From: Escherichia coli
GTDB lineage: Bacteria > Pseudomonadota > Gammaproteobacteria > Enterobacterales > Enterobacteriaceae
Length of the DNA: 352 bases
Assembly (NCBI RefSeq): GCF_003334255.1
Contig: NZ_QOWU01000256.1
Reading direction: 5' to 3' (one strand)
The notes beneath the pieces are model-generated. The model was not told the DNA's origin and did no database searches. It saw nothing but the letters and a program-made list of their open reading frames with translations. Below are positions 1 to 352 of the stretch, one piece after another. Numbering within the stretch: position 1 is the stretch's first letter; every line of letters begins with the position of its first letter. Made by a program: the position numbers and the translations under genes.

Positions 1-12
1 GTCGCGGTTTTC

Positions 13-153
13 CTACTGCTTACACTGTAAGAACGCCGCAAACTCCGCTCCCCACAAATTCAGCCGGAACTCACACAACGAGCCGTGTAACATCCAGATG
101 GTGAAGATTACCGTCATACAAATTGTGACGGTGATGAGCGATTTTTGCGACAT
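13..153 (-). CDS. hok: Hok/Gef-family type I toxin, small inner-membrane protein, 46 aa (HokA-like)
   Basis: Minus-strand ATG at 153..151 and TAG stop at 15..13. An in-frame TAG lies 10 codons upstream (183..181) with no other start between, so the start is unambiguous. AGGAG Shine-Dalgarno (plus 163..167) sits 9 nt upstream of the ATG. Translation: MSQKSLITVTICMTVIFTIWMLHGSLCEFRLNLWGAEFAAFLQCKQ. Short polar N-terminus (MSQK), an ~18-residue hydrophobic segment, then a tail with the SLCE and AAFL.CK motifs characteristic of Hok/Gef proteins. Family assignment is from recalled HokA/HokE sequences, not a database search. Symbol is family-level only; the paralog is not assigned. Confidence 0.85.
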   Translation of the reverse strand: MSQKSLITVTICMTVIFTIWMLHGSLCEFRLNLWGAEFAAFLQCKQ

Positions 154-256
154 AACGCTTGTCTCCTGAGTGGAGAGGCGCTAACCTACTACTTGTGAAG
201 GTTGTACGGTCAGGGCCTCGGGTTAACATTAAAGTTGACTCGGGGCCTTTCCACAT
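71..256 (-). CDS. mok: mok-like overlapping reading frame (61 aa), probable translational-coupling ORF, not an independent protein
   Basis: The ORF from the supplied track (MWKGPESTLMLTRGPDRTTFTSSRLAPLHSGDKRYVAKIAHHRHNL...). It starts 103 nt upstream of the hok ATG, runs across the hok Shine-Dalgarno and start, and ends at TGA 73..71 inside hok in a different frame. This is the arrangement known for mok in plasmid R1 hok/sok. Its His/Arg/Thr-rich sequence has no recognisable fold. Start is uncertain: a GAAGG lies only 4 nt before the ATG at 256, and an alternative in-frame ATG exists at 229..227. Confidence 0.45.
   Translation of the reverse strand: MWKGPESTLMLTRGPDRTTFTSSRLAPLHSGDKRYVAKIAHHRHNLYDGNLHHLDVTRLVV
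159..187 (+). promoter_or_regulatory. Candidate sigma70 promoter for a Sok-like antisense RNA
   Basis: Plus strand: -35-like TTGTCT (159..164), 17-nt spacer (165..181), -10-like TAACCT (182..187) with T at position 1, A at 2 and T at 6. Predicted start around 191..195. The -35 overlaps the hok Shine-Dalgarno region on the opposite strand, as I recall for the Sok promoter in R1. Hexamers are moderate matches only. Confidence 0.4.
163..167 (-). promoter_or_regulatory. Shine-Dalgarno (ribosome-binding site) of hok
   Basis: Minus-strand AGGAG (plus-strand ctcct at 163..167) with a 9-nt spacer to the hok ATG at 153. Confidence 0.6.
194..252 (+). ncRNA. sok: Candidate Sok-like cis-encoded antisense RNA (type I antitoxin), about 57-60 nt
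   Basis: Lies between the candidate promoter (159..187) and a stem-loop plus TTT (214..250). Predicted architecture is a roughly 20-nt unstructured 5' tail (194..213) followed by a single 3' hairpin. It is fully complementary to the mok/hok mRNA from 4 nt downstream of the mok ATG to about 60 nt further on. Size and layout resemble Sok of plasmid R1 (about 64 nt). Ends are approximate. Confidence 0.4.
214..252 (+). terminator. Stem-loop with short U-run; putative intrinsic terminator and structural domain of the antisense RNA
   Basis: Plus-strand 214..227 (GGCCTCGGGTTAAC) pairs with 234..247 (GTTGACTCGGGGCC): 14 bp, 11 Watson-Crick plus 3 G-U wobbles (218/243, 221/240, 224/237), 6-nt loop ATTAAA (228..233), followed by TTTCC (248..252). 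On the minus-strand transcript the three wobbles become A-C mismatches. The U-run is only 3 nt, so termination efficiency is uncertain. Confidence 0.35.
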
Positions 257-306
257 CAGGCCTTCAGGTTCTCCCTCCAGCCATCAGCCGAAAGGCACCC
301 GCGCAT

Positions 307-335
307 AATCTACGATTTTTGCCCTGCACGGGCAA
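307..335 (-). promoter_or_regulatory. Candidate promoter for the mok/hok mRNA
   Basis: Minus strand: -35-like TTGCCC (revcomp of plus 330..335), 17-nt spacer, -10-like TAGATT (revcomp of plus 307..312). Predicted start near plus 300, giving an mRNA beginning GGGUGCCUUUCGGC... about 44 nt upstream of the mok ATG. Weak hexamers; the true promoter could lie beyond the right edge. Confidence 0.3.
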
Positions 336-336
336 C

Positions 337-352
337 AAAAAACCCGCCATCA
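337..352 (-). terminator. Possible 3' arm and T-tract of an intrinsic terminator for an upstream minus-strand gene, truncated by the window edge
   Basis: Minus strand reads ...TGATGGCGGG TTTTTTGTT: a GC-rich segment (plus 343..348) followed by a T6 tract (plus 337..342). The matching 5' arm would lie beyond position 352 and is not visible. Confidence 0.2.

Follow-up and report, generated by a model that had tools for sequence, protein, structure and literature searches.

The stretch of E. coli DNA analyzed here (352 nt, hereafter the window) very probably carries the greater part of a type I toxin-antitoxin module of the hok/sok kind, which sits in a Sepvirinae (Stx-phage-like) prophage with lom on one side and the following late-region gene on the other. 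Judged by its profile matches and conserved residues, a 46-aa open reading frame (ORF) on the minus strand is a Hok/Gef family membrane toxin gene. Judged by the pattern of substitutions among its relatives, this frame, and not an overlapping 61-aa frame, is the gene under selection. We assign the transcript ends, the antisense RNA (Sok), the structural switch and the role for the phage by analogy, and these parts of the reading are tentative. Records already exist of the gene, of its family and of toxicity for the exact peptide, and in this respect the finding is correct but ordinary.

A Hok/Gef family toxin gene in the shorter of two overlapping frames

The initial annotation had proposed that the likely functional gene is a 46-aa toxin ORF with an ATG at 153 and a strong Shine-Dalgarno (SD) sequence. 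The coordinates, the sequence and the description of this ORF all proved correct. In the sequence, an AGGAG at 167–163 lies 9 nt 5' of the ATG (153–151). The same annotation had read Hok motifs in the product, and had named a similarity search and a transmembrane prediction as ways to check this reading. The similarity was borne out by profile searches. Pfam PF01848 (HOK_GEF) matched the 46-aa ORF with an i-E of 4.7e-8 (33 bits), residues 8–44 aligning onto model positions 6–42 of 42, and PHROG 251 ("MokW-like host killing") matched over the full length with an E of 2.8e-24. The NCBIfam matches consisted of the HokA equivalog and the Hok subfamily models only; the best was HokA NF007290 (38.4 bits, E 9.1e-10), which does not reach its curated cut-off of 89, and the Hok subfamily model, at 23 bits against a cut-off of 73, was likewise below threshold. 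PADLOC returned no match.

Conserved residues point in the same direction. According to the text of a survey by Escalera-Maurer et al., 2026 (bioRxiv 10.1101/2025.08.07.668861), the residues M1, C16, T18, L30, C31, E32 and E41 are kept in >80% of 1264 Hok peptides. All seven are present in the 46-aa peptide, as M1, C12, T14, L26, C27, E28 and E37, and so is a second cysteine near the C-terminus (C44), where the family has Cys or Tyr. Among 33 subfamily members, C27 and C44 are invariant and conservation reaches at least 90% at L26, E28 and E37; C12 and T14 are variable. A protein search found 56 relatives from Escherichia, Shigella and Salmonella, mostly of 46 aa and mostly named "Hok/Gef family protein", which hardly vary in their C-terminal half (SLCE...GAEFAAFLQCKQ). 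Since Cys27 and Cys44 are hard-coded, TadA recoding would not be needed.

Hydropathy was calculated on the Kyte-Doolittle scale with a 17-residue window. The best window of the 46-aa peptide, at 2.32, covers residues 6–22 (LITVTICMTVIFTIWML), a value similar to the corresponding maxima of HokA (2.51) and HokW (3.22), and this N-terminal hydrophobic stretch is predicted to form a transmembrane helix. In length the peptide falls within the ~45–55 aa of the Hok family, and it shows the family layout of a single hydrophobic helix, here predicted, at the N-terminus and a polar tail at the C-terminus. The further suggestion that the sequence is not identical to any K-12 Hok paralog, and may be HokA-like, also held: the nearest paralog is HokA, at 46% identity, and the score against the HokA model is below the cut-off. 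By these sequence comparisons, the peptide is a HokA-like member of the Hok family and not HokA itself or another K-12 paralog.

The two overlapping frames were compared across 80 related loci (L005–L084) from IMG/VR, which were found with an alignment of the 33 subfamily members and one of which (L021) contains the window exactly. The 80 loci hold 22 distinct coding sequences, whose variable sites in the hok frame number 12/4/22 at codon positions 1/2/3. The closest relatives differ at 11 sites, of which 10 leave the Hok peptide unchanged and the eleventh makes the last codon a stop, whereas in the 61-aa frame all 11 change an amino acid and third codon positions are the least variable. The 61-aa ORF is the longest in the window, starts with ATG and has a GAAGG 4 nt 5' of that ATG (256), all of which would suit a true coding gene overlapped by an incidental 46-aa frame. 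Nevertheless, its product is hydrophilic and has no recognisable feature, NCBIfam and PHROGs gave no family match for it, an ORF from the same ATG is kept in only 5 of the 80 loci, and in most close relatives the ORF from this ATG stops after 8–15 codons. The synonymous pattern, the missing family match and the poor conservation of the longer ORF together argue that the short frame is under protein-level selection, and we regard a coding 61-aa gene as scarcely credible.

The earlier preference for the short frame is thus supported by the substitution pattern. The longer frame is not the selected gene, but neither is it simply a rival, since it occupies the position and the relative frame of mok in the R1 system. 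Two more small ORFs lie antisense to or upstream of the leader, one of 49 aa (TTG start, 159–308, plus strand), for which an NCBIfam search gave no match, and one of 28 aa (264–350, minus strand).

Promoters, mRNA folding and a predicted antisense RNA

To delimit the module, 48 distinct 510-nt stretches were aligned. The conserved block extends from window position 335 to ~53 nt past the low end of the window, that is, from the -35 of the predicted hok promoter to a 3' fold-back element (Table 1). Homology among the 48 variants begins at this -35, and the flanks are unrelated in a distant group that comes from other genomic contexts. A terminator scan of the surrounding locus (L001) found AACCCGCTGTGATGGCGGGTT followed by TTTTGTTGCC on the minus strand at L001 6361–6341, which corresponds to window 361–341, and the Ail/Lom CDS ends just 5' of this terminator.

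Table 1. Features of the module in window coordinates, or in coordinates of the surrounding locus (L001) where a feature lies beyond the window.
Feature	Coordinates	Strand	Description
Upstream lom intrinsic terminator, 3' arm and T-run	337..352	-	hairpin begins outside the window
Predicted hok promoter	307..335	-	-35 TTGCCC (335-330), 17-nt spacer, -10 TAGATT (312-307)
5' mRNA end, tac-like element (predicted)	284..300	-	GGGUGCCUUUCGGCUGA
61-aa ORF, mok position	71..256	-	ATG start; overlaps hok in another frame
ucb-like internal box	242..254	-	GUGGAAAGGCCCC; candidate alternative partner of the 5' element
Leader hairpin, hok strand	214..247	-	in minimum-energy fold; complementary to the predicted Sok stem-loop
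Hypervariable leader segment	193..212	-	column identity 40-70% between blocks >90% conserved
Hok SD hairpin	162..176	-	AGGAG (167-163) held by anti-SD UCUCC (176-172)
hok-family toxin gene	13..153	-	46 codons, ATG start, TAG stop at 15-13; product MSQKSLITVTICMTVIFTIWMLHGSLCEFRLNLWGAEFAAFLQCKQ
3' stem-loop after hok stop	1..3 (first 3 nt only; cut by the window)	-	GACGGGGAC-GAAA-GUCCCCGUC
3' fold-back element	L001 5965-5948	-	UCAGCCG AUAU GGCACCC; 35-52 nt beyond the window end
Predicted Sok promoter	159..187	+	-35 TTGTCT (159-164), 17-nt spacer, -10 TAACCT (182-187)
Predicted Sok-like RNA, ~58 nt	194..252	+	5' single-stranded tail of ~14-18 nt, 16-bp hairpin (214-247), UUUCC

The hok promoter site matches the consensus at 8/12 positions, and hok transcription is predicted to start near G300. 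A consensus promoter scan with a threshold of 9/12 listed neither the hok nor the Sok promoter; for hok, the omission follows from the 8/12 match. The -10 block of the predicted Sok promoter is >90% conserved, its -35 reads TTGCCT, TTGACT or TTGCTC in relatives, and its position agrees with that of sokW relative to hokW in phage 933W. Both promoters are candidate assignments, for which we relied on location, conservation and analogy.

When the predicted mRNA was folded as a 356-nt molecule, the 5' element (GGGUGCC..CGGCUGA) paired, at minimum energy (z -5.9), with the fold-back element. Across 40 distinct sequences, 94.9% of the cells of this 5'-3' pairing were paired, compared with 21–44% in slid controls. 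Covariation behind the closure was looked for in the same 40 sequences and almost none was found; the complementarity is conserved instead. The RNAalifold consensus paired window 300–287 not with the 3' element but with 254–242 (alignment columns 1–14 with 47–59), which makes the internal box a candidate second partner of the 5' element. Because its 12 pairs are essentially invariant in the 40 sequences, the support for this pairing is also conserved complementarity rather than covariation.

We noted that the fold-back element overlaps the start codon given by PGAP (L001 5956–5954) to a downstream 133-aa hypothetical gene. Relatives from other contexts keep the fold-back element and have ATAAGG or AAGTGG in place of the ATG. 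The annotated 133-aa start may be wrong, since a second in-frame ATG lies 10 codons downstream and has an SD-like stretch, GGTGAGAG.

Nearer to the coding sequence, the hok SD is predicted to be held in a hairpin with a local fold of -12.1 kcal/mol (z -2.8), which recurs in the full-length fold, and the CUCC/CUCU...GGAG arrangement is present in all variants. The leader hairpin has a conserved stem and a variable loop. In the 3' stem-loop that follows the hok stop codon, two pairs are changed on both sides in 18–20 of the 40 sequences, and covariation is limited to this stem-loop and a few local pairs. On the opposite strand, the complement of the 3' stem-loop (window 1–12 plus L001 5981–6004, plus strand) forms a terminator-like hairpin followed by CGGTTTTCC; no plus-strand gene is annotated upstream of it.

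The predicted Sok-like RNA folds at -28.6 kcal/mol (z -4.75), and its termination is uncertain because its U-run is only 3 nt long. The hypervariable leader segment is mosaic, in that close variants combine a few alternative versions of it, and this pattern points to recombination, or to diversifying change, where Sok is predicted to bind. The segment would be the target of the Sok 5' tail and, as such, a specificity determinant. Rfam RF01794 ("sok") matches 300..142 on the minus strand over the full model, with 35.8 bits and an E of 1.1e-6, not reaching the gathering threshold of 59. On the hokW leader of 933W (L004), this model scores 113.5 bits on the hok strand (L004 38611–38785, minus strand). 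As that match lies on the hokW strand while the annotated sokW is opposite, RF01794 marks the hok leader and not the antisense RNA, hence its match in the window is no evidence for a Sok RNA.

Genomic context, proposed mechanism and role

The window DNA is present in 1551 of 5426 complete E. coli genomes, where it is almost always chromosomal, with a median of one copy and a maximum of seven. In the two genomes checked, RefSeq/PGAP annotates an identical protein (WP_000078907.1, "Hok/Gef family protein") at the exact coordinates. Its neighbors in both are an Ail/Lom gene on one side and, on the other, hypothetical genes in a row and then one for a giant LPD38/LPD5-domain protein, with tail-fibre genes adjacent. 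There are also 198 matching phage records, mostly Stx-converting Sepvirinae, and E. coli prophages and Stx phages share this location after lom and before the gene that follows it. Among the best 25 of the 198 phage records, 20 have no annotated feature under the match; one RefSeq phage record labels the 46-aa ORF "MokW-like host killing". In the 933W reference, the gap between lom and ST933Wp67 (45428–45856; L004 25429–25857), which is the location of the module in related phages and prophages, is unannotated.

These records bear on the initial expectation that annotation with a size threshold would miss the toxin. The expectation holds for length-filtered ORF tracks and for several phage records, older or annotated by their submitters and including the 933W reference, which lack this gene, but not for RefSeq genomes, in which PGAP calls WP_000078907.1. 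That the ORF track lacks the 46-aa gene is due solely to the minimum length set for it. In practice this is a matter of annotation hygiene, in that type I toxins drop out of ORF tracks that start at 60 aa and an overlapping non-coding frame appears in their place.

The exact 46-aa peptide is, moreover, entry 72_1589 of a high-abundance cluster in Table S2 of the Escalera-Maurer et al. survey, and it was cloned there as pAZ3-72_1589 for a toxicity assay (bioRxiv 10.1101/2025.08.07.668861). The survey text gives 42 of 45 tested homologs as toxic and names 19_179, 60_1482 and 69_1540 as the non-toxic ones; by that text, the exact peptide is reported to be toxic when overexpressed, which in effect supplies the check that the initial annotation had called for.

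By analogy, the Hok peptide would insert into the inner membrane via its N-terminal helix, and the cell would be killed or lysed. The ~355-nt mRNA, starting at ~300, would at first be closed, with the 5' element and the fold-back element paired and the SD sequestered in its hairpin. Trimming of the 3' end back to the stem-loop would then allow the 5' element to switch to the box at 254–242, and the leader would open. The Sok-like RNA (plus strand, ~194–252) could pair with the opened leader, resulting in decay or in a block of translation. In this variant, the 61-aa ORF may serve as a mok-like leader ORF that brings ribosomes to the hok start; most relatives have no such ORF.

In R1, the mok AUG is at 116–118 and the hok AUG at 174–176, an offset of 58 nt (mod 3 = 1), and hok needs mok translation that reaches the hok SD (PMC9841398). 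The ATG of the 61-aa ORF lies 103 nt before the hok ATG, and this offset mod 3 is also 1. Across the 80 related loci (region 1300–1500 of each), no ATG/GTG/TTG ORF enters hok from upstream in 56. The upstream ORFs of the remaining loci start with an ATG at 130 nt (12 loci), an ATG at 103 nt, as in the window (5), a TTG at 46 nt (5) or other TTG codons (2). An in-frame mok of the mokW kind was considered as well, and is ruled out because a TAG within the conserved GGTTAGCGCC closes that frame ten codons 5' of the hok ATG. We conclude that mok is present but doubtful for the window and is no defining part of the 46-aa subfamily, and that the R1 scheme cannot apply unchanged across this subfamily. 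The absence of a conserved mok poses a modest question about the reach of the R1 regulatory scheme.

That 56 of the 80 loci have no mok, and yet show strict purifying selection on the peptide and conserved RNA elements, raises the idea that the 46-aa subfamily (cluster 72) opens the hok SD independently of mok. The module might also gate translation of the downstream gene, an idea that comes from the Stx-phage context, where the fold-back element overlaps the start codon annotated for the late gene that follows. We consider this extension improbable; if true, a mok-independent module would be a variant of the R1 paradigm not described for this locus.

For the phage, the module might serve in prophage retention or as an aid to lysis. 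It lies inside the late/tail gene block and in the same orientation, directly after the lom terminator, and hokW-sokW of the same phage type raises phage release approximately two-fold after mitomycin C (PMC8621323). Both observations would suit a module that acts chiefly in phage lysis or release, expressed from late read-through transcripts, as has been proposed for hokW, and not as a retention (post-segregational killing) device. However, the module has a promoter-like site of its own and a terminator upstream, and read-through transcripts from lom would have another 5' end. We hold such a role to be possible, though on the unlikely side.

Alternatively, the module might be an evolutionary relic, its peptide toxic if forced and its native locus silent after decay of the mok coupling, with no role in the prophage. 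The 56 loci with no ORF entering hok from upstream fit this account, given that R1 requires mok translation. So do earlier tests of chromosomal hok loci, in which, as cited in the survey text, hokA, hokB and hokC gave no post-segregational killing (bioRxiv 10.1101/2025.08.07.668861). Individual losses are also seen: L016 has unrelated DNA at 1281–1400 in place of the promoter and the 5' element, and L046 ends its coding sequence with TAG where others have CAG as last codon (1636–1638), leaving a peptide of 45 aa. Against a relic stands the strict purifying selection on the peptide (10/11 sites synonymous among close relatives, with a C-terminal half nearly invariant in Escherichia, Shigella and Salmonella). 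Conservation as a block across insertion contexts is also seen for the RNA and promoter features, namely the promoter, the 5' element, the internal box, the hairpin around the SD, the 3' stem-loop and the fold-back element, and the window itself has an ORF in the mok position. Decay to a relic appears quite unlikely to us, and we retain the reading of the window as most of a hok/sok-type toxin-antitoxin module.

Comparison with known Hok systems

The closest counterpart is survey peptide 72_1589 (60%-identity cluster 72), which is identical in protein sequence to the 46-aa product. Its cloned DNA has two synonymous differences from the window, CTT for CTC at codon 6 and GTT for GTA at codon 15. 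In its text, the survey covers coding sequences only and does not define mok, Sok or the mRNA ends. Among named paralogs, HokA of K-12 comes nearest: it shares 21 of 46 residues with the window peptide, along with the motifs MxQK, WM, SLCE and AAFL.CK, and both of its cysteines are hard-coded too. In the survey's clustering at 60% identity, by contrast, HokA belongs to cluster 93 and the window peptide to cluster 72, and the hokA site also differs in that it adjoins cspA and is disrupted by IS150 in K-12.

The likeness to the hok/sok (parB) system of R1 extends to the layout of the whole module. Each encodes a small membrane toxin and has a tac-like 5' element complementary both to a 3' fold-back element and to an internal box, which in our case are candidate alternative partners. 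In each, too, the SD is hidden (by prediction here), the leader ORF that overlaps hok keeps to one relative frame, and the stop codon is followed by a stem-loop. The parallel would be completed by a short antisense RNA, predicted in our case, that consists of a hairpin and a single-stranded tail. By analogy, every feature of the module would have its counterpart in R1, namely tac, fbi, ucb, the hidden SD, the protective 3' stem-loop and Sok (PMC9841398). By contrast, R1 Hok has 52 aa against 46 aa and shares 30% identity with the window peptide, and its leader ORF begins 58 nt upstream of hok rather than 103 nt, the leader ORF being absent from most relatives of the window. A further difference from R1 is that the fold-back element here overlaps the start codon annotated for the following gene. 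Moreover, the R1 module resides on a plasmid and that of the window on a prophage, where its regulation is proposed by analogy.

The other relevant system is hokW-mokW-sokW (933W, Sp5), which is of the same family and occurs in the same type of host phage. That the window locus is itself the published hokW-sokW is ruled out by the 933W annotation and the primers, as hokW encodes 51 aa, starts MKQQKAM and is 13 kb away; the 2021 study concerned hokW only, with primers that encode MKQQKAM...VDYESEK (Takada et al., PMC8621323). HokW is HokD-like and 33% identical to the 46-aa peptide, and hokW lies near attR (933W 58460–58734), whereas the window module follows lom. In 933W, mokW (L004 38461–38673, minus strand) is an in-frame N-terminal extension of hokW with a common stop codon, while in R1 and in the window hok and the ORF at the mok position are read in different frames, hence the relation of the leader ORF to hok differs between Hok subfamilies. 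In short-tailed Stx phages of this type there are two hok modules, unrelated to each other: one is hokW, close to attR, and the other is the present one after lom. Since only hokW has been studied, the phenotypes of hokW deletion may be buffered by the post-lom module.
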